Shown: positions 1 through 14,486 of the stretch, in pieces | Layout: every line of letters begins with the position of its first letter | How positions within the stretch are numbered: the first letter of the stretch is position 1 | Assembly (NCBI RefSeq): GCF_054482525.1 | Contig: NZ_CM137006.1 | DNA: 64,000 nt | Reading direction: 5' to 3' (one strand) | Program-made: the position numbers and the translations under genes | Notes under the pieces: model-generated | What the model saw: only the letters and a program-made list of their open reading frames with translations | Database searches by the model: none | Told to the model about the DNA's origin: nothing

Positions 1-267
1 CGCCGTTTCCTGTTCGAACTTGAGGCGTTCACGTTCGGACTGATACCAGGCCTTACGGTCATGTGGCTCCATTTCTTCCAGTGATGCCGGAACGGGAAGA
101 TCAAGAAAACAGGTCAGAATGTCAGTCACCCGATAGAGTTTCAGCTTGTCATGCCCTCCGGCTGGCTGGATGTTTTTCAGCCTTGCCGCCGCAGTCTGAC
201 GACATATTCCCGCTATCGCCGCCAGTTGATTAATGTTCAGCATCAGATTTTTCAGTTCTCGATCCAT
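1..267 (-). CDS. Putative terminase small subunit / packaging HTH protein, N-terminal part (gene continues past window start)
   Basis: Manual reverse translation from ATG at 267 gives MDRELKNLMLNINQLAAIAGICRQTAAARLKNIQPAGG..., an HTH-containing N-terminus resembling lambda Nu1-type small terminases. GGAG Shine-Dalgarno lies upstream. Not in the ORF track because it is truncated. Confidence 0.4.
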   Translation of the reverse strand, partial: MDRELKNLMLNINQLAAIAGICRQTAAARLKNIQPAGGHDKLKLYRVTDILTCFLDLPVPASLEEMEPHDRKAWYQSERERLKFEQETA

Positions 268-412
268 ACCCGCTCCAGAATGTTTTAAACATGCATCTTG
301 CGAACAACTTTCAGAAGAGGTCAAAAAATGCGCTATATGTTGAGCATAAAACAAGCAAAATTAACATGCCAAAAATAAAAATACTTAAAATTCAATACAA
401 TATGAAGATGAT

Positions 413-492
413 GATGACGAATGAAAATGCAAAAACTAGCCTTTTTCCGCGCCGCTCCCGCCCCGTGGCAGACCACTCCACCGGGAGGACCC
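413..492 (-). promoter_or_regulatory. Conserved satellite element, copy 1, between the capsid terminator and the terminase-like gene
   Basis: About 72 bp (421-492) roughly 90 percent identical to 2955-3026 and in the same orientation. Contains the inverted repeat CTCCCG...CGGGAG with a nested GTGG...CCAC. Confidence 0.4.
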
Positions 493-517
493 GTAAAAAA
501 GGCGGCTGTCGCCGCCC
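493..517 (-). terminator. Rho-independent terminator after the protease-capsid gene
   Basis: Hairpin GGCGGCTGTCGCCGCC (501-516) followed on the minus strand by a T-run (A-run 495-500 on plus), directly after the capsid stop at 524. Confidence 0.55.
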
Positions 518-523
518 TTGTTG

Positions 524-2437
524 TCATGCTCCACTCGATTTCAGTAATCCGCGATAATCGAGGGCCGCGACACCTGCATCTATGCGCACTTTCCAGGCGA
601 CACCATCAACAGTAAAGCCCACCTGCTCCTCAAGATATGGCGTATCCATACCATCAAGATAAGCGACTTCTATTGTGTCCATCCCCTTAGCTGCGGCTAC
701 ATACCATTCCTTGCTATTGGCCTTATCAAGACGTGGCTCAACAATTACTTCTGCCATATCTTTCACCACGTTAATGATGCCGGGGTTCTGATTGATAGTG
801 CTCTCATCACCAACCGGAAAGACTGATGACGATGACAGAATGGCGCGACGCGCGGCAGATTCCAGCGCGGCAGGGACCAGAACAAAAGCAGGGGTAATAT
901 TCAGTGAGTCGCCGTTAGCATCCTCCTGGAGGCGCATCAGCTTACGGGCTTCATCAAGCCCCACCATGTCCATATCCTTCGCAATAAGATTTTTATGATC
1001 GGCATGGAATAACGCTTTACCATCCGTAAATTTGCCGTTGCTGGTTAACAGAAGATAAACCAGATTACCTACTGTTCTGGCGGCCGCACGCCCCATCGCC
1101 ATGGGGATTGTAGTTAACTGGGTCAGGTCATCGTTGATAATGGCCTGACGGGTAACAGAAAAAATATTACCGTATGTGGCCAGCGCAATAGGTACACCTT
1201 TATCGCTGGTGGTGATGTATTTATATTCCGCACCTTCCGGTACTTTATCCAGCTTTGAAAAACCATTCAGACCAACGCGCTTTGCTTCATGAAAGTTTGA
1301 AAGCGATCCGGTACGCGTCCATTTCTGGAACGTTTCGCCGCTGTCCTGCCAGCCTTTCAGCACTGATTTTTCAGCACCACCAGCCAGAATATGAGAAAAA
1401 TCGCTGCTGCTGTGTGTGAAAGCTGCATTAACGACCTGCGAGCGATTTAAAAAACTGCCAACACTGATACCACGATCAGTTAGTGATGCCTGGGCCATTT
1501 CAAAAAGGCTCATCATCGCGTAAGGATTTCCCCGCTCTGGGCGTTCATACCCAAGACGAGAATAAAGCCCCTGACGAATTGCATCGCCTGTTATGTTCCC
1601 GTTACCGGCATAAATATGAGTCGGGATATTTTTATTGGATGGCGTGGACTCGCGCCCCAGCTCGTTCAACAACTTTTCACGGGCCATCTCCGGTGTACAT
1701 GATGCATCCTCCAGGCACGCCATTTTGATCCCGTCGTAACGACTGCCGAACAGGCTAAACACTTCACTTATTCCGTTGATGCGCTTCTGTTCATTACCAG
1801 CAATATTGGCTGCTCCCTGTGGCGGGGTAATCATTCCTTTAATGGTTTCAGGCATGTGTGAAAAATCTCCTGTGCGTTTCGATTCAATTCGCGCCATTGC
1901 TGTGACAGATGGCAACAATTCATCAGCAAAACCGTGCTTAAGGCATTCTTTCCCGTCCATCCAGGTTTCATCTTCCAGCATGGCGGTAATTTCCTGTGCT
2001 GATTTGCCCGTTTTTCTGGCATAAGCAGGGACTAACACGGTTTCCACCTTATCCAGCAAATCAGCATAATCACGCATATCACCAGCATTTCCGCCAGAGA
2101 TACCCCACGGCTTATGTATCATCATCATGGCGTTTTCCGGCATCACAACACGATCGCCAGCCATTGCGACAACCGAAGCCATTGAAGCCGCAACACCATC
2201 GATATAAACCGTAATTTCTGCCGGATGATTCCGTAACAGGTTATAGATGGCGATGCCTTCAAACACGTCACCACCTGGCGAATGGATCCGCAGGTCGATA
2301 TGTGAGACATCGCCCAGGGCTTTCAGGTCTTCCGCAAACTGCTTCGCGGTAATACCGAAGCCGCCAATTTCTTCATAGATGGATATTTCTGCCGCTCCGC
2401 GAACACCCAGCGCCTTAATGGTGTACCAGTGATTCAT
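524..2437 (-). CDS. Prohead protease (ClpP/S14-like) fused to HK97-fold major capsid protein
   Basis: 637 aa. N-terminal 200 aa carry ClpP-like motifs (GVAASMAS with the catalytic serine context, HKP histidine). The C-terminal ~400 aa resemble HK97-family major capsid proteins. Confidence 0.7.
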   Translation of the reverse strand: MNHWYTIKALGVRGAAEISIYEEIGGFGITAKQFAEDLKALGDVSHIDLRIHSPGGDVFEGIAIYNLLRNHPAEITVYIDGVAASMASVVAMAGDRVVMPENAMMMIHKPWGISGGNAGDMRDYADLLDKVETVLVPAYARKTGKSAQEITAMLEDETWMDGKECLKHGFADELLPSVTAMARIESKRTGDFSHMPETIKGMITPPQGAANIAGNEQKRINGISEVFSLFGSRYDGIKMACLEDASCTPEMAREKLLNELGRESTPSNKNIPTHIYAGNGNITGDAIRQGLYSRLGYERPERGNPYAMMSLFEMAQASLTDRGISVGSFLNRSQVVNAAFTHSSSDFSHILAGGAEKSVLKGWQDSGETFQKWTRTGSLSNFHEAKRVGLNGFSKLDKVPEGAEYKYITTSDKGVPIALATYGNIFSVTRQAIINDDLTQLTTIPMAMGRAAARTVGNLVYLLLTSNGKFTDGKALFHADHKNLIAKDMDMVGLDEARKLMRLQEDANGDSLNITPAFVLVPAALESAARRAILSSSSVFPVGDESTINQNPGIINVVKDMAEVIVEPRLDKANSKEWYVAAAKGMDTIEVAYLDGMDTPYLEEQVGFTVDGVAWKVRIDAGVAALDYRGLLKSSGA

Positions 2438-2643
2438 TGCTCCCCCCCAGATGCAAAACCATTCTTATCAAGCCACGCGTTAACCGCGTGTCTGACAATC
2501 TGCGCCGCACCTGGTAATGGTTGGTCAGGATGATGATTTATGTGGTCGATCCTGTACTGCTTAAGGCGCATAACGGTCTGCGCATCCAGATGAACGGAAC
2601 CACCTTTTACCTCGCCTGTGTTCAGGTCGTTAATACAATTCAC
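2434..2643 (-). CDS. Small hypothetical protein upstream of and overlapping the capsid gene
   Basis: 69-aa ORF with a GTG start preceded by AAGAGGAAG, overlapping the capsid start by 4 nt. Function unknown. Confidence 0.4.
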   Translation of the reverse strand: MNCINDLNTGEVKGGSVHLDAQTVMRLKQYRIDHINHHPDQPLPGAAQIVRHAVNAWLDKNGFASGGEQ

Positions 2644-2743
2644 AGTAACTTCCTCTTACTGACTAAACTGCGCGCATTATTGATCGATAAAAGTGGTAGA
2701 TAAACATATTTCTATCATAAAAATAGATTAATCAGATTCAGAC

Positions 2744-2769
2744 ACAAAAAAGCCGGAGAGAATCCGGCA
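2744..2769 (-). terminator. Rho-independent terminator (minus strand) inside the SSB-capsid intergenic region
   Basis: Hairpin GCCGGAGAGAATCCGGC (2752-2768) followed on the minus strand by TTTTTT. Confidence 0.5.
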
Positions 2770-2954
2770 TAAATATCCCGCCATCTGAACACGTTTTGCA
2801 CAGGCAACTCCATCTGGCAGGTGAAAAACAAATTTATTTATATATTTCAATTAATTGCAAACTGGTCTAATGACAGGGAGAAAAAAATATTGTACAGGTG
2901 AAAACAGAAATAACTTTTAATTATCAATAAATTACTACACATGCTGCCGCCGCC

Positions 2955-3026
2955 ATGAAAATGCAAAAACCAGCCTTTTTCCGCGACGCTCCCGCCCCGT
3001 GGCAGGTCACTACACCGGGAGGACCC
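2955..3026 (-). promoter_or_regulatory. Conserved satellite element, copy 2, between the SSB terminator and the capsid operon
   Basis: Direct repeat of 421-492. The same CTCCCG...CGGGAG dyad is retained. Confidence 0.4.
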
Positions 3027-3052
3027 ATAAAAAAGCCGGATTGCTCCGGCTT
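3027..3052 (-). terminator. Rho-independent terminator after the SSB gene
   Basis: Hairpin AGCCGGATTGCTCCGGCT (3034-3051) followed on the minus strand by a T-run, just 3' of the SSB stop at 3067. Confidence 0.55.
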
Positions 3053-3066
3053 CTGTTACTCGTTGC

Positions 3067-3489
3067 TTAAAACGGTATGTTATCCCCGTACGGATCATCA
3101 TTTCCCGCCTGTTGTTTTGCTCTGCTCAGTGCATCAGTAGCCTGCCCCTGTTGGCCTTTTTTGCCGCCCGGTCGCGCCGTTCTCGCACTGATTACGCTGT
3201 CTGCGATAACCTGCCAGCCCTGCCGCGTCTCCCCGTTCTGTCCGGTCCACTGGCTCACCTGCATGTTACCCGCCACGCTCAGGAGTTCACCCTTGCGGTG
3301 CTTTGCCAGTGCTTCGGCCTGTCTGCCAAACGCCAGGACGGATAACCACATCGTCGCCGTTCCGTCATCTGCCTGGCTGCACGGAAGTGGGACCGCCATA
3401 CTCGCCATCGTCATTTGTGTACCCTTGCTGGTGGTCTTTAACTGCGGGTCAGCCACCAGCCGCCCGTAAGCCGCTATCTGTGCTGTCAT
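3067..3489 (-). CDS. ssb: Single-stranded DNA-binding protein (phage/plasmid type)
   Basis: 140 aa. OB-fold core WLSVLAFGRQAEALAKHRKGELLSVAGNMQVSQWTGQNGETRQGWQVIADSV parallels E. coli SSB [52 protein letters not shown]. Gly/Gln-rich linker and acidic tail DDPYGDNIPF. Confidence 0.75.
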   Translation of the reverse strand: MTAQIAAYGRLVADPQLKTTSKGTQMTMASMAVPLPCSQADDGTATMWLSVLAFGRQAEALAKHRKGELLSVAGNMQVSQWTGQNGETRQGWQVIADSVISARTARPGGKKGQQGQATDALSRAKQQAGNDDPYGDNIPF

Positions 3490-3731
3490 GCTGTCTGCTC
3501 TCCGGTTTTAACGTTGATGGTTGTCACCTGTTCCGCTTCGGCAATCTCCCGTTCTGTCAGCGTGGCAAAGTTTGCAGCTGCCGTTGTCATGAATGAGCTA
3601 ATCAGTTCGGGATGTGCTTTCGCATATCCTTCCCCGGCGTTGCGGTCGATGATTTTTATCGACACCCTTAACCAGTGTTCCGTCAAATCAAGGGCGTGCG
3701 ATTGTGATTTTTTTGTGTGCTTCGCTGTCAT
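3486..3731 (-). CDS. Small hypothetical protein between the origin and ssb
   Basis: 81-aa ORF whose stop overlaps the ssb start (ATGA). No recognisable motif. Confidence 0.4.
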   Translation of the reverse strand: MTAKHTKKSQSHALDLTEHWLRVSIKIIDRNAGEGYAKAHPELISSFMTTAAANFATLTEREIAEAEQVTTINVKTGEQTA

Positions 3732-3782
3732 AGGCTTTATCTCACAGCAGTAAATTAAAATTTTTGCGTTTTAACCCTTCAC

Positions 3783-4005
3783 CTGTTCACCTTTTGATAT
3801 TTTATCTTTTAATTCATAATGTTAAGGGGTGAACAGTTTCACAAAAACTATTCACCAACTGTTCACCACTGTTCACCCTTGAAGCTCAATAAACAATCAA
3901 AAAGGTGAACAGTGAATAGTTTGGTGAACAGTTCATAAATAACTGTTCACCCTATAACATACTGATACAAAAGATATTTATGACAGGGTGAACAGTGGTG
4001 AACAG
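3783..4005. repeat. Iteron array, putative satellite origin of replication
   Basis: Nine copies of GGTGAACAG or its complement CTGTTCACC at 3783, 3828, 3859, 3869, 3904, 3923, 3943, 3987 and 3997, separated by AT-rich spacers, immediately 3' of the replication-protein gene. Confidence 0.7.
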
Positions 4006-4018
4006 TTATTCCATAAGT

Positions 4019-5851
4019 TTAATTTTTGCTATCGTCATTAGTGACCGATACACATGATGGCATCCAGTCTTCTGATTCCTCCGTCAGTGTCACGTTTGAA
4101 CGCAAACCGTGCTTCGTTTTCCGTTTCATATACTCCCTGCCATATTCCGCCATTGCCCCCGGCATATCTTTACCGAAGCGCGTCAGTGTTACAGGTTTAC
4201 CAAACCCATGTGCCCTCATATAAGCCAGATAGGCATGATAGAGATACCTGCGTGGGCTGAATGGCACAATTTCAGCATTACCCACTAACAGGCCATCACA
4301 CATTACCGACGCCATGAGATAGCCGCAGAAGTCCACCAGCGAATCACCTTCACGCTTTATCGCGAGTGCTTCTTCTGATTTCTGCTGCTCATATAAAAGG
4401 CGTCTGGCTTCGTCCTGGTCAGCAAACCGTGTAAGCAGATGGCGAATCACTACCGCCAGCTCACCTTCTATTTTTTCCGCCAGCATTGGATCACGTTCGT
4501 TCTCCGGTACAACTTCCGAAAAATTGAATATCACCCGACGACGTGAGATCCCCCCGCTGCGGTCACTGAATGACATGGCGTTATTGTTAACCGCCAGCAC
4601 TACTGCCGGAATACGCGTTGAGTAGGGGGCTTTGTGTTTCGGGTCAATTGCCACCTTGTCACCGCCTGTAATAGCCTTAATCCCTGCCCCATCACCAGCG
4701 TAGCGGGTCATATCCGGCATGATAATCAGCGAAAAGCCAACCACTAACGCGCGTTCCCTTGCATCTTCCAGCGCCTTCATGCTTGCCGATACTGTGTTGG
4801 CCTTACCCGCCAGCATGGTGCAAATCTCCGCCATCACGCTTTTACCACTTCCCCCTGGACCTGTTACCTCAATGAATAACTGCCAGTCGTACCGGTTCGC
4901 CAGCACCATGAATAATGCAGCCAGTACGCGATCCGCCTTGCGGTCATTCTCAGCCACCGAACGGCGTAACCACTTCCAGAAATTCGGCGCATGTGTTGCC
5001 AGCGTTTCCCCCTCTGCTGGTGGGCTGAAAGGTAATTCACTGGCAATTAACAACCAGTCGTTTTTGTTATGCTCCCGAAAATTACCTGTTCTGGTATCAA
5101 ATACCCCGTTACTGAATCCAATCAGGTTACGGGCTGTATTCCCCATTACAGGCAAACTTAACTTCATGGTATCGACCGCCGATTTAATGGCGTTCTGCGA
5201 ATAGCTGATCTCCGCATCAATGAAAATCTGTGCCATAGCTCGCTGTAATTCTTTATCCTGTACTGGCTCCCATACAACGCCGTTGTAATGGTGAACAGTG
5301 TCAGAGTCAGCATGAATCGCCAGTTCACCGCCATAATGTGCCAGGAGAACTTCGCCGCGTTGACTTGCTCCCATCTGGTTAAGCGCCAGTGATGAAGCGT
5401 TATCGTCTTTTACCCGCTCTTTTTTCTTTACAGGCAGTTCAACTACCTTTTTCTTTTCCGCCAGCTCTGCCCGTTCACGTTCCAGATATTCGCGCCAGTT
5501 CTCCCGTTTCTGGCTGTGCATTCCTTCAGGGTAATAATCAGCATCCCTGACACCTGCCGCTGCCAGTTTCTGCCCGATGGTATTAACAAGCCCCGGACGC
5601 AATAACCCCGCCTGATAGAGACGCACGCGATAGCGTCCGTCCGGTACGATTTGCAGGTTGTCCAGTTCGGCAAGTTGTTGCTCTCCAAGCCAGACAGGTG
5701 GCACGTTATCGCCAGCCAGTCGCCCGTCCTGTTCCTGCCACTGATTCGCATGTGCCCACGCATCACTACCCGCAAAAATGATGACTTCCGTCATTTTGTC
5801 ACGCGGCTGGTGTTTTAAATTTGGCGCTTTTTTCATTTCTGCTCTCTCCAC
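4019..5851 (-). CDS. Replication initiator, P4 alpha-like primase/helicase family (D5_N plus SF3 NTPase)
   Basis: 610 aa with Walker A GPGGSGKS and the general architecture of phage/plasmid primase P4-family C-terminal domains. Sits next to the iteron array. Confidence 0.7.
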   Translation of the reverse strand: MERAEMKKAPNLKHQPRDKMTEVIIFAGSDAWAHANQWQEQDGRLAGDNVPPVWLGEQQLAELDNLQIVPDGRYRVRLYQAGLLRPGLVNTIGQKLAAAGVRDADYYPEGMHSQKRENWREYLERERAELAEKKKVVELPVKKKERVKDDNASSLALNQMGASQRGEVLLAHYGGELAIHADSDTVHHYNGVVWEPVQDKELQRAMAQIFIDAEISYSQNAIKSAVDTMKLSLPVMGNTARNLIGFSNGVFDTRTGNFREHNKNDWLLIASELPFSPPAEGETLATHAPNFWKWLRRSVAENDRKADRVLAALFMVLANRYDWQLFIEVTGPGGSGKSVMAEICTMLAGKANTVSASMKALEDARERALVVGFSLIIMPDMTRYAGDGAGIKAITGGDKVAIDPKHKAPYSTRIPAVVLAVNNNAMSFSDRSGGISRRRVIFNFSEVVPENERDPMLAEKIEGELAVVIRHLLTRFADQDEARRLLYEQQKSEEALAIKREGDSLVDFCGYLMASVMCDGLLVGNAEIVPFSPRRYLYHAYLAYMRAHGFGKPVTLTRFGKDMPGAMAEYGREYMKRKTKHGLRSNVTLTEESEDWMPSCVSVTNDDSKN

Positions 5852-6132
5852 GCGGCAATCATGTTTTTCAGTTCCTGTAGTTTTTTATCAACATCCATAC
5901 ATGACACATGGTTATTTCTGGAAAGCGGGATTTCCCGCCTGAATCTGCTAATAAAGATCTCCACGTTCAGCGAACTATGAAATGAATAGCCATCACGAAT
6001 AAAATACACACGGTCAAACATCAGTTCTTTTACCGTTACTCTGTTACCGTTCTTATCCAGATAAATAGCGCCGGGGATAATTTTGGGGTGTGCATAACCG
6101 CTGGCAGTCAAGCCAGATAAATATGTTCTCAT
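5833..6132 (-). CDS. Small hypothetical protein of the replication operon
   Basis: 99 aa, Shine-Dalgarno GGGGA upstream, 3' end overlaps the start of the replication gene. Confidence 0.45.
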   Translation of the reverse strand: MRTYLSGLTASGYAHPKIIPGAIYLDKNGNRVTVKELMFDRVYFIRDGYSFHSSLNVEIFISRFRREIPLSRNNHVSCMDVDKKLQELKNMIAAWREQK

Positions 6133-6138
6133 GATTAT

Positions 6139-6451
6139 TTATCCCCGATTTGAATCAGTATTCGCTTTCTTTATGGCATTTAATGCATCTGTGGCATTTT
6201 CAATGGTGCACCGTAACGAAATATCAAACTGCCCAAGCATTGCCAGTAACAAACCGATATTACCCATATCAATGCGCATAGCCTTTTCGTCATAGTCCTC
6301 ATTTTCTGACGCATGCCACATCAGGCTACCAATTGACGCAATACCCATTGATATATTGTCAGTAGCCCCATCCGCAGCGGAATAAACCTTTTTAGCAATA
6401 TCATGCTCACAGTTAAAATGCGGATTAATCAGGTACTGGTAATTTGACATA
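6139..6451 (-). CDS. Small hypothetical protein of the replication operon
   Basis: 104 aa starting [15 protein letters not shown]. The ORF-track entry 6139..6894 is longer, but its 5' extension is Pro/Arg/Leu-rich junk. The ATG at 6451 overlaps the TGA of the upstream gene. Confidence 0.45.
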
Positions 6452-6991
6452 TCAGGCATGGCACACCCCCTGGCGAATACGGGCGGCGAATACAGCAACA
6501 CAACCGGACGGGCAGCGGTTACGCGCTTCACGTTCCGTCCAGGCGGTGACGTGGATGATTTGATGGTCTGACGCGCCAAAGATGATAAAGCGCCAGAGAA
6601 AGGCGGTTTGAGAATGTACAAGGGTAGGGATAGTAGCCATGTTGGCAGCCTCCTTTGACAGTGAAGAATTTCCACCGCAGGAAACGCCAATTTCGCTGGC
6701 GGTGGACTGAACGGGGTTGGCGTAACCGGCGTCAAAGGGAACCGGCGCTTCCGAAGAAGCCCCCGCCCAGCCCACCATAACTTTGATGTGAGCGAATGCG
6801 GACGATAAAAAAGACGCTGGCGCGTCATATATCGCCTTTGACATTTCCAGGACGCCAATCCCGGCACCAGATTTTGCTGGTGCGGATAAATCATAGCCCT
6901 GGCTTGCAGTGGCGATCAACTGGTTTTTTACACCCGCTTTATTCAGGTTGTGCGAGTCCCGCCCTTGCGGGTGTGTGGTATGATTTCTCAT
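6452..6991 (-). CDS. Hypothetical protein, first gene of the replication operon
   Basis: 179 aa from ATG at 6991 with GAGG Shine-Dalgarno. This is the 3' part of ORF-track entry 6452..7741, whose upstream part overlaps the operators and the plus-strand regulator gene. Stop overlaps the next start. Ala/Gly/Ser-rich, no recognised motif. Confidence 0.35.
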
Positions 6992-7088
6992 AGCGACCTC
7001 GATACTATCGTTATCGTTGGTGGTTAGAAGCCCCGTTACTGCTCCAACAGTGCGGGGTTTCGTCGTTTCTGCACCTTGCATCAACAAG

Positions 7089-7140
7089 GTGTTGAACACC
7101 AATGTAAACTCAGGTGTTGAACACGTCAAGTGTTGAACAC
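7089..7140. promoter_or_regulatory. Three direct copies of the 11-bp near-palindrome GTGTTGAACAC (operator array) in a divergent promoter region
   Basis: Copies at 7089-7099, 7114-7124 and 7130-7140, between the minus-strand operon start (6991) and the plus-strand small gene (7191). Confidence 0.5.
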
Positions 7141-7190
7141 TTGTTTTTTTTCCTGCATACTGCATTTGTTTTTTGTGAGGGGTACACAAC

Positions 7191-7370
7191 ATGGCGACAA
7201 AAGCAGTAAACGCAAAATCACAAACAGTTGCGGCAAGGGTTCCGCATGAAGTTATGAACAATGTTGAGGCGGTAAAAATGCCTGGTGAAAGTACAGGGCA
7301 ATTTGTAACAGCAGCATTAAAGCGAGAAGTTGAATACCGCCAGCGACGCAAGGCTAAAGAGCAAGAATAA
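7191..7370 (+). CDS. Putative ribbon-helix-helix DNA-binding regulator
   Basis: 59-aa [62 protein letters not shown] found by manual translation; it is below the ORF-track length cutoff. Strand-helix-helix pattern, directly downstream of the operator repeats. Confidence 0.4.
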
Positions 7371-7427
7371 TCACTATCAGCGCTGTGGTGTGAGGTACTC
7401 CGGCGCATTGCTTTACAGGTCGGCACT

Positions 7428-7637
7428 ATGAGCAAAAAATACCTATCCACTGAAGAGATTTTCGCAGAACAACGAAGATTGCTTTTACAGAGCATTGTTG
7501 CACGCCAGAAAGAAAAGGCACACGCTAAACAAATGCCACCAAATACAGAACCAGCGCCTACAAAATTTGCGCTTGATGAGTTTCTCAATAAACAGCCCCG
7601 GGTAATGAAAGCTAACAGGAACCGCCCACCAGGCTGA
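7428..7637 (+). CDS. Small hypothetical protein co-oriented with the RHH gene
   Basis: 69-aa ORF followed by a terminator. Confidence 0.3.
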
Positions 7638-7701
7638 TCACATTGCCCACCAGCCAGCAAATCGCTATGATGGCTGGGCTTATGTTTAGTGTATTCCCAC
7701 T

Positions 7702-7733
7702 GGCGACCTCTGATCCGGGTCGCCTTTGTTTTA
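7702..7733 (+). terminator. Rho-independent terminator, possibly bidirectional between the plus-strand genes and alpA
   Basis: Hairpin GGCGACC-tctgatccg-GGTCGCC followed by TTTGTTTTA. Confidence 0.5.
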
Positions 7734-7751
7734 TGTGTCATATGCCCCCCT

Positions 7752-7961
7752 TTACGCTGCCTTGCCTGAATTAATGCGATCCCGGCTTTTAACCCATTCC
7801 ATAACCTCGGACAGCAGCCAACCTACAGAACGACCGCCCAGATTACGGCGTGACGGGAAATTCCCTTTTTTCTCCAGTTCATAGCGTGTAGTGCGACACA
7901 CTCCAGTTAACTTACGACATTCATCCTCACGGATTACGCGATCTTCATTTATTTCACGCAT
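7752..7961 (-). CDS. alpA: AlpA/Vis-family transcriptional regulator (excision activator)
   Basis: 69 aa. KSVGW...E.EW core motif and size match AlpA of CP4-57 and Vis of P4. Position next to int is typical. Confidence 0.65.
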
Positions 7962-8380
7962 ACAAAAACCTACATAAAAAATTACGTATATAAACTTTTC
8001 TCTTAGCTGTAGATATATGAGATCGGATATTACTTAGATTCTTTTTTCACCTCTTAAATTAAAAACACAACCTTGCTAAAGGCTTTGTTCGCTAAGGTTC
8101 GTAGAAGCTCGTTAGTGTTTAAAATCGTGTCACGAGTTTTTAAGCGATGCAACAAAAAATGTCGTTATTTGGCATTACGCTTGAATTATCTCATTAAAAA
8201 CAAATAGATAAACCATCAAGTGTTGGAACAATCAAGAAACAGAGAATAAAAGTTCAGAAGAAGACATTCCAATTTTTTGATGGTTGACATATATAAAGCG
8301 AAGATATTTGCAGATATTTTCCGATATTCTACGATTTATTCACGGCTGTAATCTCTTAAAGAAAAAACAGCCGTAATTTG

Positions 8381-9619
8381 TCAAGAATTTTGGGTGTAAA
8401 TTCGCGGGGTCATAACAACGATTTTTTTATCATTGTTCTGGAGAAGCTCGAGACGGTCTACCCATAGATTAAGAGCATCACGTTTTGCATCAAGATAACG
8501 GGAGTGGTTATAGACTCGTTGCATCCCCGGCATCTGGTGGGCGGTAAGCTGCTCGACAATATGCGGATCCACGCCTAAATCGTTCAGCATGGTTGTAAAT
8601 GTGTGCCGGATATCGTGTAACGTCCAGGGGGCTTGATTAATTCGTCTGTGCGCTGTTCTTCCGTACTCTGCTACCGAAGATTGTCCTTTCAGTTCACCAA
8701 GCAATAAGCCTGTGTGTCTGTTCTGCTCCACCAGTTGCGTGACGAACGGCAAAATGCTTTCCGGTATTGGCCTGAATATGGCGACCTTCGTTTTGCTGTG
8801 CTCCTTCGGTACTGTCCAGAGCATTTCTTTAAAATCCCACTCCTGCACCTCAGAGCGCCTTAGCTCAGTGGTACGGCATCCAAAAACAATCAGGAGGCGA
8901 ATTAGGGCGCTGTAGTATGGCGGGAATATTTTGTCATCCAGGGCGCGGAGTAATTCCCCAAGCTCCTTATTTGTTAGTACGCGCTCGCTCACTTCTGCTT
9001 TTTTTCCCACATCACCGACAACCATATCATCAAGAACGTTGCTGATTGCGTATCGTCGTTTTCGGCAGTACTTAAGCGCCTGTTTGCATACCTGTAGCAA
9101 AAATCCGGCAGATACTGGGCTTCGCTTTGCCATCTGGTCAAAACATGCCAACCAGTGCCGTAGCTCGCATTTTTCCAACGGCAAAGCGCCAATCTGGCTG
9201 ATTATGTGTTTATTGATCCGGCTTTTCAGTGATTCGTAGTCAGTGCGCTTTTCCTTTGCATACGATTCAAGCCAGTAAGTGAGCGCTTCCTTAACTGTCA
9301 CGGGGGCTAACGCATCCTGTACAGCACGATTAAGCTCATAGCGCGGATTTTTCCCCTCAGCCAGCCAGGCGCGACACTGTGCTGCTTTTTCCCTGGCTGC
9401 TTTCAGGCTCAGATCGGGATAATTGCCCAGTCTCAGACGTTCCGGTGATACCTGCCTACCAGTTCCGGCCCTGTAAGTGAAATACCAGGTTAACAGGCCG
9501 CTGGTGGAATGTCTTACGCTAAGATTGCCACCGTCATTAAAAAAGGCGTTTTTTGTGGTTGGTGATCCGCTTAATTTTCGTAAAAGAGTGTCGCTAAGTC
9601 TATGAATTGCGCTGCTCAT
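8381..9619 (-). CDS. int: Tyrosine site-specific integrase (P4-type)
   Basis: 412 aa. C-terminal catalytic motifs HDIRHTF and RVYNHSRY (tyrosine nucleophile context), N-terminal arm-binding region. Confidence 0.85.
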   Translation of the reverse strand: MSSAIHRLSDTLLRKLSGSPTTKNAFFNDGGNLSVRHSTSGLLTWYFTYRAGTGRQVSPERLRLGNYPDLSLKAAREKAAQCRAWLAEGKNPRYELNRAVQDALAPVTVKEALTYWLESYAKEKRTDYESLKSRINKHIISQIGALPLEKCELRHWLACFDQMAKRSPVSAGFLLQVCKQALKYCRKRRYAISNVLDDMVVGDVGKKAEVSERVLTNKELGELLRALDDKIFPPYYSALIRLLIVFGCRTTELRRSEVQEWDFKEMLWTVPKEHSKTKVAIFRPIPESILPFVTQLVEQNRHTGLLLGELKGQSSVAEYGRTAHRRINQAPWTLHDIRHTFTTMLNDLGVDPHIVEQLTAHQMPGMQRVYNHSRYLDAKRDALNLWVDRLELLQNNDKKIVVMTPRIYTQNS

Positions 9620-10023
9620 GTTTCGCGTTTCCGGTCATCAAAATTAACTACACCATTGACTACACCGTGCATCGTACAAGGGCAAACCGTGACGAACAAG
9701 AGCGAACAAGGAAAACAAAATTTTCCTTTATAATCATAGCGATGAATGCACACAAAACACTACCACGAACACCCGCGAACACTAGATGATAAATAACTAT
9801 CATCTATCGTTGGCATCAGCGACATCTGTCACATTCCTGTCAATAGCGTTAACTGCTTCAAATTTTTGATTCATACCTGCCCCCTGGCCCCTGTCAAATG
9901 CTTGACGGCTCGCCCTAATTCTCTAAATTGTATTTCTAGAGTTGGCGAGGTTTTGAACAGCCCCCTCTCTGACCCCGGTTTATTCCATCTTACTTGTATA
10001 AGATTTGCGAAGGATGTCGAAGC

Positions 10024-10248
10024 ATGGAAAAGGGTACTGTTAAGTGGTTCAACAATGCCAAAGGGTTTGGTTTCATCTGCCCTGAAGGCGGCGGCGAAGA
10101 TATTTTCGCTCATTATTCCACCATTCAGATGGATGGTTACAGAACGCTAAAAGCTGGACAATCCGTTCAGTTTGATGTCCACCAGGGGCCAAAAGGCAAT
10201 CACGCCAGTGTTATTGTGCCCGTCGAAGTAGAAGCGGCAGTCGCATAG
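10024..10248 (+). CDS. cspD: Cold-shock-like protein CspD
   Basis: 74 aa starting MEKGTVKWFNNAKGFGFI with cold-shock domain motifs. ORF-track start trimmed to the conserved start. Confidence 0.85.
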   Translation: MEKGTVKWFNNAKGFGFICPEGGGEDIFAHYSTIQMDGYRTLKAGQSVQFDVHQGPKGNHASVIVPVEVEAAVA

Positions 10249-10320
10249 CTCTTCTGTCTCATTGTGTACATCCTAAAGGCAAAATGCCAGCCCGATCGGC
10301 TGGCATTTTTATCTCAAAAA

Positions 10321-12267
10321 TTACTCTCGTGCCAGAGCATCTACTGGATCCAGTCGTGCCGCATTTCGTGCGGGTAACCAGCCAAATAAAATCCCGGTGA
10401 CCGTCGAGCAGAGAAACGCCAGCAGCAGCGCCAACGGTGAAAAACCAATCTCCCAGCCGGGTAAGAAAAGCTGCAAGGTGAAAGCAATTAACAGTGACAG
10501 TGTTATTCCCAACGCGCCACCGACCAGGCAAACCAGTACGGCTTCGATCAGAAACTGTTGCAAAACATCGCTTGCTCGCGCACCTACAGCCATGCGAATG
10601 CCAATTTCCCGCGTCCGCTCGGTCACTGACACCAGCATAATATTCATTACACCAATACCGCCCACCACCAGTGAAATCACCGCCACCAGCGTCAGAAACA
10701 GTTGTAAAGTACGTGTGGTCTTTTCAACGGTTTTCAAGACGCCGTCCATGTTCCAGGTAAAGAAATCCTTCTTACCGTGGCGCAGTAAAAGTAAACGCGT
10801 GAGTTGCTGTTCCGCCTCAGCGCTGTCAAATCCTTCTTTCACCCTGACAGTAATGGAGTTCAGCCACGACTGGCCCATAACTCGCCCGGACATCGTGCTG
10901 TAAGGTAGCCAGACACGCAGCACTTTACTGCTACCAAACATCGACTGTTTTTCTTCCGCCACACCAATGACTCTGGCGGGCATATTGCCGACCAGAATCA
11001 CCTCGCCAACCACATCTGCTTTATGGGGGAAAAGCTGGCGGCGAGTATTACTGTCGAGAACCACGACCTGCGCACGACCGTTCAGCTGCTCCTGATTAAA
11101 GGTGTTCCCTTCACTGAAGGTCATGCCATAGACATTAAAATAATCGCCGCTCACGCCATTGGCACTGGCAGCCACATCAACATTGTTATAACGCAGGCGC
11201 AGGTTTTGCGAGACGGCAGGTGTGGCTGAGGCGACCCACGGTTGTTTTTGGATGGCGATTAAGTCGTCGTACTTCAGCGCCTGCTGATATTGCGGATCGT
11301 CATCGCCAAAATCTTTCCCGGGATAGACATCAATAGTATTCGTACCAATAGAACGAATATCCGCCAGCACCATTTGTTTGGCGGCGTCGCCCACCACGAC
11401 AATGGAAACCACCGACGCAATACCGATAATAATCCCCAGCATGGTCAGTAAAGTACGCATTTTATTCGCTGCCAGCGCCCGCCATGCCATCGTCAGCGCC
11501 TCGTTAAAACCGCTGACAAACTGCCGCCAGCCAGAGGCCGTGTTGACAACAGGTTCCGTCCCGCCAGTAGCATTCACTTTTTCAACGGCGGGAGGATTGC
11601 GCACAATTTCGCCGTCGCGAATTTCGATCACCCGCTCGGCCTGAGCAGCGACCTGCGGATCGTGGGTAACGATAATCACCGTATGCCCGCGATCGCGCAG
11701 CTGATGCAGGATCGCCATCACCTCTTCGCCAGAATGGCTGTCCAGTGCGCCGGTCGGTTCATCGGCAAGAATTACCTGACCGCCGTTCATCAATGCCCGC
11801 GCGATGCTGACGCGCTGTTGCTGACCACCCGAAAGCTGTGCCGGATAATACTCTGTACGGTCTTCCAGCCCCAGTCGTTGCAGCAACTCCTGGGCGCGAA
11901 GCAGCCGCTGTTTCCGCTCAAGACCAGCATAGACGGCGGGTACTTCAACGTTCTGCTCGGCGGTTAAATGCGAAAGCAAATGGTAACGCTGGAAAATAAA
12001 GCCGAAATGCTCGCGGCGTAGTTGCGCCAGCGCATCGGCGTCCAGCGTGGCAACATCCTGACCGGCGACGCGATAGGTGCCGCTGGTGGCCTTATCCAGG
12101 CAGCCGAGAATATTCATCAGGGTCGATTTACCGGAACCCGAAGCGCCGACAATCGCCACCATCTCACCAGCATAAATATCGAGGGTGATGCCCTTCAGCA
12201 CCTCAACCTGCTCATCACCGGCAGGATAGCTGCGACGAATATCCTTTAATTCGAGCAAGGGCGTCAT
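10321..12267 (-). CDS. macB: Macrolide export ABC transporter ATP-binding/permease MacB
   Basis: 648 aa with Walker [18 protein letters not shown] signature and C-terminal FtsX-like permease. Overlaps macA by 4 nt. Confidence 0.9.
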
Positions 12268-13379
12268 TGTGCAGCTCCTGGTTTGGCCTCACCAATCACC
12301 ACTTCATCGCCCGCTTCCAGCCCTTTGACAATCTCAACATCGGTATCGTTACGTGCGCCAATCGTCACTTCACGCTCGCGTGTTTCACCATTACGCAACA
12401 ATTTGACTTTATAACGATTATCGCCAACCGGATCGCCTAACGCCGACAGAGGGATCGTCAGCACATTTTTCACATCGGTGAGCTGAATATGCACTTGCGC
12501 GGTCATATCCAGCCGCAGCAAACCATTGGGGTTGGGTACTTCAAAACGGGCGTAATAGAAAATAGCGTCGTTAACCTTTTCCGGCGTCGGTAGCACATCC
12601 TTGATTTGCCCCTCATAGCGCGTCAGTGGATCGCCAAGCACCGTAAACCAGGCTTTTTGCCCCGGCTTCAGGTGGATTACATCCGCTTCAGAAACCTGCG
12701 CTTTTACCAGCATGGTGCTCATATCTGCCAGCGTCAGAATGTTCGGTGCTTGTTGTGCGGCAATCACCGTCTGGCCTTGCAGAGTGGTTATTTGCGTGAC
12801 TTCCCCGGCCATCGGGGCAACGATGCGGGTGTAATCGAGATTGGTTTTAGCCGTATCGAGAGAGGCCTGATTGCGCTTGATTTGCGCGTCAATGGTGCCA
12901 ATTTGCGCCTGTTTCACAGCCATCTCCGTCGCGGCGGTATCGAGATCCTGCTGTGAAACCGCCTGCGTTTGTGCAAGACGTTGCTGACGGGAATACGTCA
13001 CCCGCGCCAGTTTCAGCTCCGCTTCCGCCTGCTGCCGCTGCGCGCGTAGCTCCATCAGAGTTGCTTCCACCTCCTTGATCTGGTTTTCAGCCTGTTCAGG
13101 ATCAATAACCCCTAAAAGCTGGTCTTTTTTTACTTTATCGCCAATCGCCACCGACAGCGTTTTCAACTGACCGCTGACCTGCGCGCCCACATCAACCTTA
13201 CGCAGCGCGTCCAGCTTTCCGGTCGCCAGCACGCTTTGCTGTAAATCACCGGGGCGCACAATCAGCGTCTGATAAGTCGGCACGGGTGCGTTAAGAATTC
13301 TCCATAACGTAATCAGCCCGGCGATGACTATCACCAGCGCAATAACGTAACGCTTCTTCACGGTTTTCCGCTTTTTCAT
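12264..13379 (-). CDS. macA: Macrolide efflux membrane fusion protein MacA
   Basis: HlyD-family periplasmic adaptor with coiled-coil region. Start set at MKKRKTVKK (371 aa). Confidence 0.85.
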
Positions 13380-13493
13380 AAATATTCTGAATACTCCATA
13401 TGCCAATCCGGGTCATTAACTTCAACGAAATATCAACAAAACCCTAAAATTTACGTTAGTAATCACACTATTGATGTTTGGTTAAGATACGCA

Positions 13494-14486
13494 ATGGTGA
13501 AATCGACGTCATGTATAACCATTGATTTCATGAATATGTCGCAGCTAACTGAACGGACCTTTACGCCATCTGAATCTCTCAGCAGCCTGTCACTTTTTCT
13601 TAGTCTGGCACGTGGACAGTGTCGGCCGGGTAAATTCTGGCATCGCCGTAGTTTTCGCCAGAAATTTTTGCTGCGCTCGTTGATTATGCCGCGTTTAAGC
13701 GTTGAGTGGATGAACGAACTTTCCCACTGGCCTAATCTCAATGTGTTGTTAACGCGCCAGCCGCGACTGCCTGTGCGTCTGCATCGCCCTTACCTTGCGG
13801 CGAATCTTAGCCGTAAGCAATTGCTGGAGGCGTTACGTTACCATTATGCGTTACTCCGCGGGTGTATGTCGGCGGAAGAATTCAGCTTATATTTGAATAC
13901 CCCCGGGCTGCAACTCGCGAAGCTGGAAGGCAAAAACGGCGAGCAGTTCACACTTGAGCTGACCATGATGATCTCAATGGATAAAGAAGGTGACAGCACA
14001 ATCCTGTTCCGCAACAGCGAAGGTATTCCTCTGGCAGAGATCACGTTTACCCTGTGTGAATATCAGGGGAAAAGAACAATGTTTATTGGCGGACTGCAAG
14101 GCGCAAAATGGGAAATTCCACATCAGGAAATCCAGAATGCGACGAAAGCCTGCCACGGGCTATTTCCCAAACGCCTTGTGATGGAAGCGGCCTGTCTGTT
14201 TGCCCAACGTTTGCAGGTAGAGCAGATTATTGCCGTCAGCAATGAAACGCATATTTACCGCAGCCTGCGTTATCGTGATAAAGAAGGCAAGATCCATGCC
14301 GATTACAACGCGTTCTGGGAGTCGGTTGGCGGCGTATGTGATGCTGAACGCCATTACCGCCTTCCGGCACAGATAGCACGAAAAGAGATTGCCGAAATCG
14401 CCAGTAAAAAACGGGCTGAATACCGTCGGCGCTATGAGATGCTCGACGCTATTCAGCCACAAATGGCCACGATGTTTCGCGGTTAA
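13494..14486 (+). CDS. ybjX: DUF535/VirK-like protein YbjX
   Basis: 330 aa in the conserved position between macA and ybjD. Confidence 0.65.
   Translation: MVKSTSCITIDFMNMSQLTERTFTPSESLSSLSLFLSLARGQCRPGKFWHRRSFRQKFLLRSLIMPRLSVEWMNELSHWPNLNVLLTRQPRLPVRLHRPYLAANLSRKQLLEALRYHYALLRGCMSAEEFSLYLNTPGLQLAKLEGKNGEQFTLELTMMISMDKEGDSTILFRNSEGIPLAEITFTLCEYQGKRTMFIGGLQGAKWEIPHQEIQNATKACHGLFPKRLVMEAACLFAQRLQVEQIIAVSNETHIYRSLRYRDKEGKIHADYNAFWESVGGVCDAERHYRLPAQIARKEIAEIASKKRAEYRRRYEMLDAIQPQMATMFRG

Follow-up and report, generated by a model that had tools for sequence, protein, structure and literature searches.

The DNA analysed here is a 64,000-nt stretch of contig NZ_CM137006.1 (RefSeq assembly GCF_054482525.1), called the window below. 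Its positions 1-9700 hold a ~10 kb satellite of the phage-inducible chromosomal island (PICI) type, which belongs to the EcCICFT073 family and sits between clpS and yljB/cspD. On its minus strand the genes follow each other in the order alpA, long leader open reading frame (ORF), RNA switch, icd/kil-like gene, a gene for a 106-amino acid (aa) protein, rgdR-like gene, pri-rep, origin (ori), a gene for an 81-aa protein and ssb. Considering the evidence described below, we concluded, with a probability of about 70%, that this region is the early/replication operon of a Gram-negative PICI, and that a 179-codon ORF preceding the 106-aa gene is the 3′-end of a P4 Eta-like ORF housing an immunity module of the P1 immI/P4 cI type; the replication genes would be controlled by a C4 antisense RNA block and by translation of the long frame. 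The element is thus an ordinary member of a known satellite family carrying a known type of RNA switch. New here, and the most interesting residue of the analysis, is that the 179-codon ORF forms the tail of a stop-free frame, unconstrained in sequence, which extends from alpA to the icd-like gene. A previous sequence-only reading had treated this ORF as a discrete gene for an unknown protein and as the positional equivalent of P4 Epsilon. Neither view was borne out: it comprises an RNA switch and an Icd/Kil-like leader ORF, its P4 counterpart is the eta/kil-cI-type immunity region, and it is only the 3′ part of a 429-codon open frame.

The RNA module inside the 179-codon ORF

The features that carry this conclusion are the following.

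6452-7741, minus strand: 429-codon open frame, Eta-like (ORF list); its last part is the 179-codon ORF
6890-6919, minus strand: internal promoter-like site, equivalent of P4 PLE (TTGATC, 18-nt spacer, TATGAT; promoter scan)
6807-6896, minus strand: IsrK/c4-a1b1 element with the upstream C4 targets (Rfam RF01394, RF03163)
6695-6782, minus strand: C4/P4-CI-type antisense immunity RNA (Rfam RF01695, 82 bits, gathering score 45, full length 1-87)
6641-6694, minus strand: leader with the downstream C4 targets (complementarity, covariation)
6452-6640, minus strand: Icd/Kil-like ORF of 62 aa, the gene translated first behind the RNA switch (NF033153; WP_230139126 of the NCBI Prokaryotic Genome Annotation Pipeline, PGAP)

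The transcription start predicted for the internal promoter-like site lies near 6883, which is the 5′-end of the isrK match, and the −10 region aligns with those of P4 and of the phage relatives. The isrK match (RF01394, 6807-6883) scored 75.1 bits against a gathering score of 50 and ends in an intrinsic terminator composed of a hairpin (6826-6813) and a U7 run reaching to 6807. It includes the upstream target sites b1 (UUGGCGU, 6858-6852) and a1 (GUCAAAGG, 6842-6835), and the same two sequences recur downstream of C4 as b2 (UUGGCGU, 6690-6684) and a2 (GUCAAAGG, 6659-6652). The C4 RNA carries a′ in a loop (CCUUUGAC, 6738-6731) and b′ in a single strand (ACGCCAA, 6723-6717), which are exactly complementary, over 8 nt and 7 nt, to both the a1/b1 and the a2/b2 pairs. 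The a2 site overlaps the Shine-Dalgarno sequence AAGGAGG (6655-6649), which is located 9 nt before the ATG of the Icd/Kil-like ORF at 6640.

The fold and the pairing are both supported by covariation. The long closing stem and the two internal hairpins of C4 comprise 27 pairs, 11 of which showed compensatory double changes in 11 sequences, with one broken cell. C4 and its upstream and downstream sites covary, displaying at least eight pairing specificities among 13 aligned sequences (P4, SfV, two Stx phages, P27, phi419, Tyrion and PICI variants). RNAduplex energies were also calculated for the entire C4 molecule with its targets and set aside: they were only marginally better than those of shuffles because intramolecular structure is ignored, and site-level complementarity and covariation were used instead. 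DNA similarity to otherwise unrelated phages is confined to 6620-6902, that is, to the RNA module. Carriers of the module form a minority of the 77 IMG/VR loci that share the rgdR allele of the window, and other carriers (L031, L058 and L083) have different pairing specificities. The Rfam models of C4 and isrK have already been reported to match several Gram-negative PICIs in a paper that also covers the P4 model (PMC10111431); therefore, the identity of the 179-codon ORF is present in the literature in passing. In the deposited genome identical to the window both RNAs are unannotated.

The same segment is known to Pfam as a protein family. The PF10554 (Phage_ASH) match covers residues 34-127 of the ORF, equal to nt 6892-6611, which is exactly the a1b1/IsrK, C4 and a2b2 module. 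Accordingly, the 179-aa (or 429-aa) ORF could be taken for a genuine "Ash"/Bro-network regulatory protein, with the RNA matches merely overlapping a coding region. The Phage_ASH match is strong (1e-18), several PHROGs named "transcriptional regulator" match as well, the frame is open through the module in the window, SfV, Stx1_699 and P27, the module is inserted in frame when compared with EcCICFT073 (see below), and weak partial similarity to Ant PHROGs is seen at the N-terminal end of the EcCICFT073 long ORF. However, the variable sites counted among the window, SfV, Stx1_699 and P27 are distributed as 34/25/30 over codon positions 1/2/3 of the Ash frame (of ~85 each), showing no codon periodicity, whereas the third-position bias of real ORFs is evident in the 81-aa (13/5/25), 99-aa (25/22/44) and 106-aa (20/11/28) genes of the operon. 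The changes in the stems are compensatory for RNA pairing, yet non-synonymous for the putative protein, and in phages F004, phi419 and Tyrion stops interrupt all three frames although the isrK and C4 RNAs score in full. Furthermore, the ORF encloses a promoter-like site and an intrinsic terminator, and the Pfam match does not exceed the span of the RNA module. The lack of periodicity, the compensatory stems and the stops in relatives together place the conservation at the RNA level, which makes a regulatory protein very unlikely; where it matches here, the Phage_ASH "protein family" looks like a translated RNA element.

The Icd-like part of the ORF was recognized by NF033153 with 59.2 bits (cut-off 25) over residues 14-57 of the 62-aa ORF, and it aligns with the Kil end of P4 Eta. 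Its RNA is rich in C (C/G 1.38 vs. ~0.7 in the rest of the operon), a composition that would suit a Rho loading site. The P1 Icd protein inhibits host cell division (PMC8198154). Annotation of this segment is inconsistent even among near-identical genomes, since PGAP divides it in one of them into a pseudogene ("ash family protein") and a short Icd-like gene, and calls a single 246-aa "Icd-like protein" in another. The 66-aa Icd-like protein of EcCICFT073 matches the 179-aa ORF at both ends of the latter, namely over the first 18 residues (17/18 identical) and over ~50 C-terminal residues (49% identical); thus, the RNA module, which brings its own Shine-Dalgarno sequence and a MATIPTL... start, is inserted in frame in this island and adds 109 codons. 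A separate observation concerns the segment just upstream of the module: the first 18 codons of the 179-codon ORF (6937-6991) and the leader to ~7060 are nearly invariant in DNA across otherwise mosaic islands (cf. 3780-3910 of the EcCICFT073 locus, L009), and GC-rich hairpins, CCCGCAAGGGCGGG and further upstream CCCCG...CGGGG, are found there. This stretch may be a further RNA or protein-binding element.

The open frame from alpA to the Icd-like gene

Upstream of the 179-codon ORF the reading frame continues without a stop toward alpA and passes the following features.

7752-7961, minus strand: alpA (Phage_AlpA), PICI master activator (Pfam PF05930, 2.9e-16; role in PMC6092414)
7191-7370, plus strand: YlcI/YnfO-family 59-aa gene, candidate repressor (NF041551, 2e-16)
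7089-7140, minus strand: promoter-like site (−35 at 7129-7124, −10 at 7106-7101) with three GTGTTCAACAC palindromes (7140-7130, 7124-7114, 7099-7089)

The ATG of the long frame lies 11 nt after the alpA stop in the arrangement TAA-AGGGGGG-CAT-ATG. Across 6452-7741 this frame contains no stop, compared with 22 and 16 in the other two frames, and the internal ATG at 6640 with its strong Shine-Dalgarno sequence is nested in it as kil is in eta. The long frame runs antisense to two plus-strand genes, the YlcI/YnfO-family gene (7191-7370) and a 69-aa ORF (7428-7637), with which it shares third codon positions. EcCICFT073 has an equivalent frame of 428 codons. Outside the Ash and Icd parts the long ORF matched no PHROG or Pfam family. 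A Bro-N domain was considered at the N-terminus of the EcCICFT073 long ORF and rejected, as Pfam did not support it and only partial Ant PHROG matches of ~30 residues (~1e-5) were obtained.

In P4, the CI RNA and terminated transcripts arise from an internal constitutive promoter, Kil is the first gene to be translated, and full-length Eta is produced only from an upstream promoter, translationally coupled to the alpA homologue; its translation prevents termination (PMC10111431). The P4 eta ORF (L010, 8168-8812) contains the isrK, a1b1 and C4 matches in the same order as the window, ends in Kil (MATTLTPSH...) and aligns with the 179-aa ORF (2e-9). A toxic short product belongs to the description of P4 eta/kil-type genes.

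To see how general the open frame is in the family, it was followed in those 44 of the 77 rgdR-allele loci in which alpA was in view. The frame ending at the Icd-like stop reached the alpA stop in 28 of them, and these 28 loci had 0-1 stops over ~1 kb vs. ~20 in each other frame. The intervals are mosaic, 655-1339 nt long, and fall into 22 types when defined at 90% identity and 80% coverage; open-frame loci are included in 15 types. Annotated genes cover less than half of each interval, and the Shine-Dalgarno sequence and ATG are conserved directly after the alpA stop. As a background, the ordinary genes of the window have 0.035 stops per codon in the same antisense frame.

An open frame opposite to genes might be a by-product, that is, a shadow ORF of the opposite-strand genes and the GC-rich RNA without a role in expression. 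Synonymous resampling with the YlcI-like proteins kept left the antisense frame open in 11-42% of trials per gene, and the continuous frame is missing in 16 of the 44 loci, which speaks for such a by-product. When the YlcI-like and neighbouring proteins were all held fixed, the frame was open in 11-89% of trials per gene, and the product over the nine genes was 7e-5. This explanation also has to account for the near absence of stops in intervals of which more than half is non-genic, for the openness of 15 distinct mosaic types, for the conserved start site behind alpA and for the P4 precedent, in which translation of eta serves against termination. Hence, we regard a shadow ORF as unlikely.

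The YlcI-like frame itself is under amino acid selection, with 1742/1112/2726 pairwise differences at codon positions 1/2/3, and the long ORF is not. Since stops are nevertheless avoided in the long ORF, the frame was read as kept open for translation and not for its product; from its sequence pattern we read it as an Eta-like ORF that stays stop-free only so as to be translated. The YlcI-like protein can be read from its sequence as ribbon-helix-helix-like, and the second promoter-like site, which faces its gene and is flanked by palindromes, probably constitutes a protein repressor layer, the two forming a candidate repressor/operator pair. In EcCICFT073 (L009, 3474-3760) a 61%-identical YlcI allele stands beside a different palindrome, GTGGGCCACAC, present in two copies.

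A broader formulation, which we advance tentatively and at somewhat less than even odds, is that a translation-only ORF of 220-765 codons joins alpA to the replication operon in this E. coli satellite family. It would start at the Shine-Dalgarno sequence and ATG right after the alpA stop, pass antisense through the island's own YlcI-like candidate repressor gene, sharing third positions with it, through the promoter/operator region and in some islands through the C4/IsrK module, and end as an Icd/Kil-like peptide, its amino acids being unconstrained and stops being excluded across a mosaic of unrelated cassettes.

The replication operon and its small proteins

Downstream of the Icd-like gene the operon contains the following features.

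6139-6459, minus strand: 106-aa uncharacterised protein (phrog_15327, 1e-71)
5833-6132, minus strand: 99-aa DUF4222/RgdR-family protein (PF13973, 61.1 bits, cut-off 27, residues 16-67)
4019-5836, minus strand: Pri-Rep primase-helicase (D5_N, DUF5906, Pox_D5; PGAP, Pfam, PHROG)
3775-4011, strand not given: replication origin (AT-rich DNA flanked by CTGTTCACC iterons, at least 12 copies, both orientations)
3486-3731, minus strand: 81-aa uncharacterised protein (phrog_1231, 8e-49); its stop overlaps the ssb start
3067-3489, minus strand: single-stranded DNA-binding protein (ssb), last gene of the module (PF00436, 7e-16; PGAP)

The sequence-only reading had proposed four tightly coupled small proteins here as new factors acting on the helper or against phages. 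The ORF list contains all four on the minus strand where it had placed them or close by, with sizes of 81 aa (3486-3731), 99 aa (5833-6132) and 179 codons (6452-6991) as it gave them; the fourth, counted as 104 aa, has 106 aa (6139-6459), because the lower count begins at the second ATG (6450), while the start at 6459 is backed by PGAP and by phrog_15327 (aligned 1-106/106). These ORFs do flank the primase gene and the origin, so the assignment to a satellite replication operon was correct, and inspection of the sequence confirmed the tight coupling. The Icd-like stop and the 106-aa start overlap in ATGCCTGA, the 99-aa start follows the 106-aa stop after 6 nt, overlaps of the form ATGA occur at the 99-aa/primase and 81-aa/ssb junctions, and a Shine-Dalgarno-like purine run precedes every start. 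The origin occupies the 287-bp gap after the primase gene and before the 81-aa ORF, and its iteron layout around AT-rich DNA is as described for E. coli PICI origins (PMC6092414). The statement that none of the four has a recognizable motif holds for the 106-aa and 81-aa proteins but fails for the 99-aa protein (Pfam DUF4222, 7e-17) and the 179-aa ORF (Phage_ASH, 1e-18; NCBIfam Icd-like, 3e-15). Likewise, the remote-homology and structure predictions it had suggested, when run, gave families for the latter two and no family, defence or fold match for the former two. The two are truly uncharacterised small proteins.

The 99-aa protein is, judged from its sequence, a divergent allele of the RgdR family, which gives no support to the idea of a new helper-interaction factor. 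Along its full length it shares 35% identity with C1493 of CFT073, a protein that has been tested functionally; it has the same length of 99 aa, and its gene lies directly upstream of pri-rep and overlaps it (ATGA), as c1493 does; a word-index search with it returned only near-identical DUF4222 proteins. At residues 20-22, where RgdR has RGD, PGA is found. RgdR (ECs1581, 99 aa) activates LEE1 (in the enterocyte effacement locus, LEE) and type III secretion and represses motility, the RGD tripeptide is conserved in enterohaemorrhagic E. coli (EHEC), and residue 20 affects activity (PMC3378721). The purified protein bound DNA in gel shifts, the control fragment included (PMC3378721). The RgdR/DUF4222 family is present in all E. 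coli PICIs analysed by Fillol-Salom et al. (PMC6092414, PMC3378721).

The 106-aa protein had no match in Pfam, NCBIfam or PADLOC, and tblastn detected none in 50,697 phage genomes. Its 19 homologues, of which the named ones are all from E. coli (the copy in L081 is 66% identical), restrict it to satellites of the E. coli group. Its gene fills a variable slot between the icd-like and rgdR genes, in which EcCICFT073 has four unrelated ORFs of 73-77 aa, yet it was found in 77/77 loci with this rgdR allele, even where the primase switches allele after ~140 residues. This switch is a side observation on the primase: 13 loci (L028, L029, L030, L033, L042, L055, L057, L063, L065, L067, L069, L070 and L071) share only the first ~140 residues of Pri (76-95% identical) and retain the rgdR-like and 106-aa genes followed by another primase allele, which indicates a recombination boundary inside pri-rep.

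The 81-aa protein is more widespread. Its counterpart at the same position of EcCICFT073 has 85 aa and 86% identity, 159 close homologues were found, all named hypothetical, and an exhaustive profile/HMM (hidden Markov model) search yielded 702 remote representatives at 50% clustering, with the family core ID..FGEGYAK.HPEL(I/V)..FM.TAA. The remote relatives tested matched no Pfam family and all belong to phrog_1231, the function of which is unassigned; in the 50,697 phage genomes tblastn gave one weak match only, in a Pseudomonas phage. Genome contexts of four remote relatives were mostly short contigs, and a single one was informative (alpA - X - DUF927), in which the relative (L088, 5001-5321) overlaps the alpA stop and precedes a DUF927 primase-helicase gene. 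It is worth noting that one family member (P0222) is fused to an extra N-terminal region.

AlphaFold2 models, built on shallow alignments, were of low confidence for both proteins, a two-helix hairpin for the 106-aa protein (predicted local distance difference test, pLDDT, 62.3) and a helical hairpin for the 81-aa one (pLDDT 63.9), and Foldseek found no structural match in the PDB (best E = 1.6 and 5.8). Searches of PDB chains with the 81-, 99- and 106-aa proteins and with a 46-sequence profile of the 81-aa family returned chance-level matches only. For the nine small ORFs PADLOC-DB gave no defence family at E <= 0.01, and BLASTP against P4 Epsilon, Orf151, Cnr and Kil and all small EcCICFT073 ORFs revealed only the expected 85-aa and RgdR matches, that is, no similarity of the small ORFs of the element to P4 Epsilon, Orf151 or Cnr.

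These results bear on two views of the small proteins. The first is that all four are new proteins that manipulate the helper, through derepression or interference with packaging, or counteract phages. In its favour, no family is known for the 106-aa and 81-aa proteins, deposited phage genomes lack them or nearly so, and the variability of the icd-like-to-rgdR slot is typical of conflict genes. In contrast, the 179-aa ORF is an RNA switch with an Icd-like leader, the 99-aa protein is of the RgdR family, the PADLOC and P4 comparisons were negative, and the 106-aa gene is co-inherited with the rgdR/pri allele in 77/77 loci instead of varying independently, which renders this view distinctly improbable. 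The second view regards the RgdR-like, 106-aa and 81-aa proteins as dedicated replication accessories, the former two as Pri-Rep modulators like P4 Cnr and the last as a partner of SSB or the origin. It is favoured by the start/stop overlaps with pri-rep and ssb, the joint inheritance of rgdR, the 106-aa gene and the N-terminal ~140 aa of Pri, which holds even when the remainder of Pri changes allele, the adjacency of the 81-aa gene and ssb in EcCICFT073 too, the remote homologue between alpA and a DUF927 gene, and the DNA binding of RgdR (PMC3378721). However, pri-rep and ori alone drive PICI replication (PMC6092414), sequence similarity to P4 Cnr is lacking, and the other contexts of remote homologues were uninformative; such dedicated roles are possible, though doubtful. 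Because pri-rep and ori suffice, the small ORFs are accessory, as had been assumed before, and our best guess is that the 106-aa and 81-aa proteins assist the replication or early programme of the island itself as accessory factors rather than acting as anti-phage effectors. The 81-aa protein is a member of a large unnamed family without a Pfam model.

The island as a whole corresponds to the Gram-negative PICI type: int and alpA are co-oriented with the operon, an origin in which two sets of iterons surround AT-rich DNA follows pri-rep, and the size is in the ~10-15 kb range (~5000-15700 in locus L001). The int-to-ssb order is identical to that of EcCICFT073 (L009), the prototype Gram-negative PICI, and sid, delta, psu and epsilon are not among its annotated genes; therefore, it was assigned to the EcCICFT073 family and not to P4-like satellites. 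The stretch is 100% identical to that of the avian pathogenic E. coli (APEC) O1:K1:H7 strain E16002, where PGAP lists int, alpA, Icd-like, hypothetical, DUF4222, primase, hypothetical, SSB, ClpP-protease/capsid fusion and DUF1441. Parts of a 4.8-kb query are present in 2275/5426 complete E. coli genomes; this count includes any part of the query, and carriers of the RNA module are the minority mentioned above for the 77-locus sample.

Some further observations concern the rest of the element. The late module (524-2437 of the window; 5498-6267 in L001) encodes a 637-aa fusion of a ClpP-like prohead protease and a major capsid protein, a DUF1441 protein and a 92-aa ORF, and has no portal or large terminase gene. 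The sister island L002 instead encodes a capsid protein in a gene of its own, together with a decoration protein and a small terminase. Islands that are otherwise near-identical have swapped this morphogenesis cargo. A 94-nt direct repeat, 88% identical between its copies (421-514 and 2955-3048 of the window), is located on the minus strand directly downstream of the stops of the capsid fusion (524) and ssb (3067). Each copy contains a terminator-like hairpin with a U-run and then a second GC-rich hairpin (z-scores −3.0 and −1.8), and no Rfam family matched; the repeat may be a terminator or regulatory unit that punctuates the late genes. Just beyond the integrase end of the island, the segment 9919-10312 over cspD scored 41.6 bits with the Rfam cspA thermoregulator model, below the gathering score of 78, which probably reflects similarity within the cold-shock gene family only.

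Proposed control of the operon and comparison with known systems

Based on P1 and P4, the operon could work as follows. In the quiescent state the internal promoter would produce the IsrK-like and C4 RNAs. C4 would mask the ribosome-binding site of the Icd-like ORF and block translation of the leader ORF, as in P1 and P4; the IsrK/seqA-like RNA that precedes C4 carries the decoy sites b1 and a1. The untranslated C-rich leader RNA would then be terminated by Rho, and the coupled 106-aa, rgdR-like and pri-rep genes would stay silent. Upon induction, alpA would be switched on by the helper phage, in keeping with the role of AlpA as the helper-induced activator of PICIs (PMC6092414), and transcripts would begin upstream. 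Ribosomes coupled from alpA could then translate the whole 429-codon frame, as described for P4 Eta, and override the terminator, the C4 block and Rho; the operon would be expressed and replication turned on.

Several results do not fit this picture easily. The c4-a1b1 match (RF03163) reached 43.8 bits, just under its gathering score of 46.7. In this element as well as in SfV, Stx1_699 and P27 the frame stays open through the RNA module, and a Pfam protein family (Phage_ASH) exists for it. The long frame is not kept open back to alpA in 16/44 loci. In EcCICFT073 neither C4 nor isrK was matched, even at E <= 10; therefore, the RNA switch is optional for the satellite family. That the long ORF is translated, that termination depends on Rho and that C4 is processed are all taken by analogy from P4 and P1, and the role given to the 106-aa and 81-aa proteins derives only from position, coupling and co-inheritance, their models being of low confidence (pLDDT 62 and 64).

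The closest parallel is P4, whose immunity region consists of the nested eta/kil genes, the cI RNA, its targets seqA and seqC, and the promoters PLE and PLL. There, a long ORF likewise contains, in this order, an internal constitutive promoter, the isrK/seqA target, the C4/CI RNA and another target, which lies on the ribosome-binding site of a short MAT... ORF in the same frame (Kil, 65 aa in P4 vs. 62 aa here), starts beside an alpA/vis homologue and controls an operon ending in a primase-helicase gene. Unlike P4, the element lacks sid, delta, psu and epsilon, its long ORF includes two opposite-strand genes and a second, operator-flanked promoter, and the isrK-to-C4 spacer is ~24 nt instead of ~107 nt; the pairing specificity differs as well. 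The immI locus (c4-icd-ant) of P1/P7 is similar in that C4 antisense RNA is made from the leader of its own operon, a′/b′ pair with a1/b1 and a2/b2, and the first ORF is Icd-like (PMC8198154); in the element the downstream cargo is a replication module and not the Ant antirepressor, and the carrier is an integrated satellite and not a plasmid prophage. The IsrK locus of Salmonella Gifsy-1 has a 77-nt terminated small RNA and a read-through mRNA isoform with downstream ORFs (PMC4825925), but there the cargo is orf45-anrP, feeding the AntQ antiterminator, in place of the Icd-like and replication genes.

EcCICFT073 and the Gram-negative PICIs of Fillol-Salom et al. (2018) share with the element int, alpA, the divergent ylcI-like gene, the icd-like gene, small ORFs, rgdR, pri-rep, the iteron origin, an ~85-aa ORF and ssb. 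They differ in the missing RNA switch of EcCICFT073, in the sequences of RgdR (35% identical) and Pri (49% identical) and in the four unrelated ORFs in the 106-aa slot. RgdR (ECs1581/C1493), a prophage-encoded activator of the LEE type III secretion system, resembles the 99-aa protein in length, in the DUF4222 core and in being encoded immediately upstream of pri-rep, with an overlap, in a PICI (PMC3378721); it is unlike it in the 35% identity and in RGD for PGA, and the O1:K1:H7 APEC carrying the 100%-identical element is not an EHEC.

Some PICIs thus carry an RNA immunity switch of the P4/P1 type before their replication genes, in several pairing specificities, and the model island EcCICFT073 does not. 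Such a switch could explain differences in quiescence among satellites or exclusion between co-resident ones. If the view of the long frame is true, activation of PICI genes by AlpA would largely consist of the ribosome-coupled shielding of a long leader both from Rho and from control by antisense RNA. The mechanism of P4 Eta would be generalized in this way, and the same transcript would also be antisense to the mRNA of the candidate repressor. If confirmed, this would provide a concrete, testable mechanism by which helper-induced AlpA turns on PICI replication, a question left open in the PICI literature.

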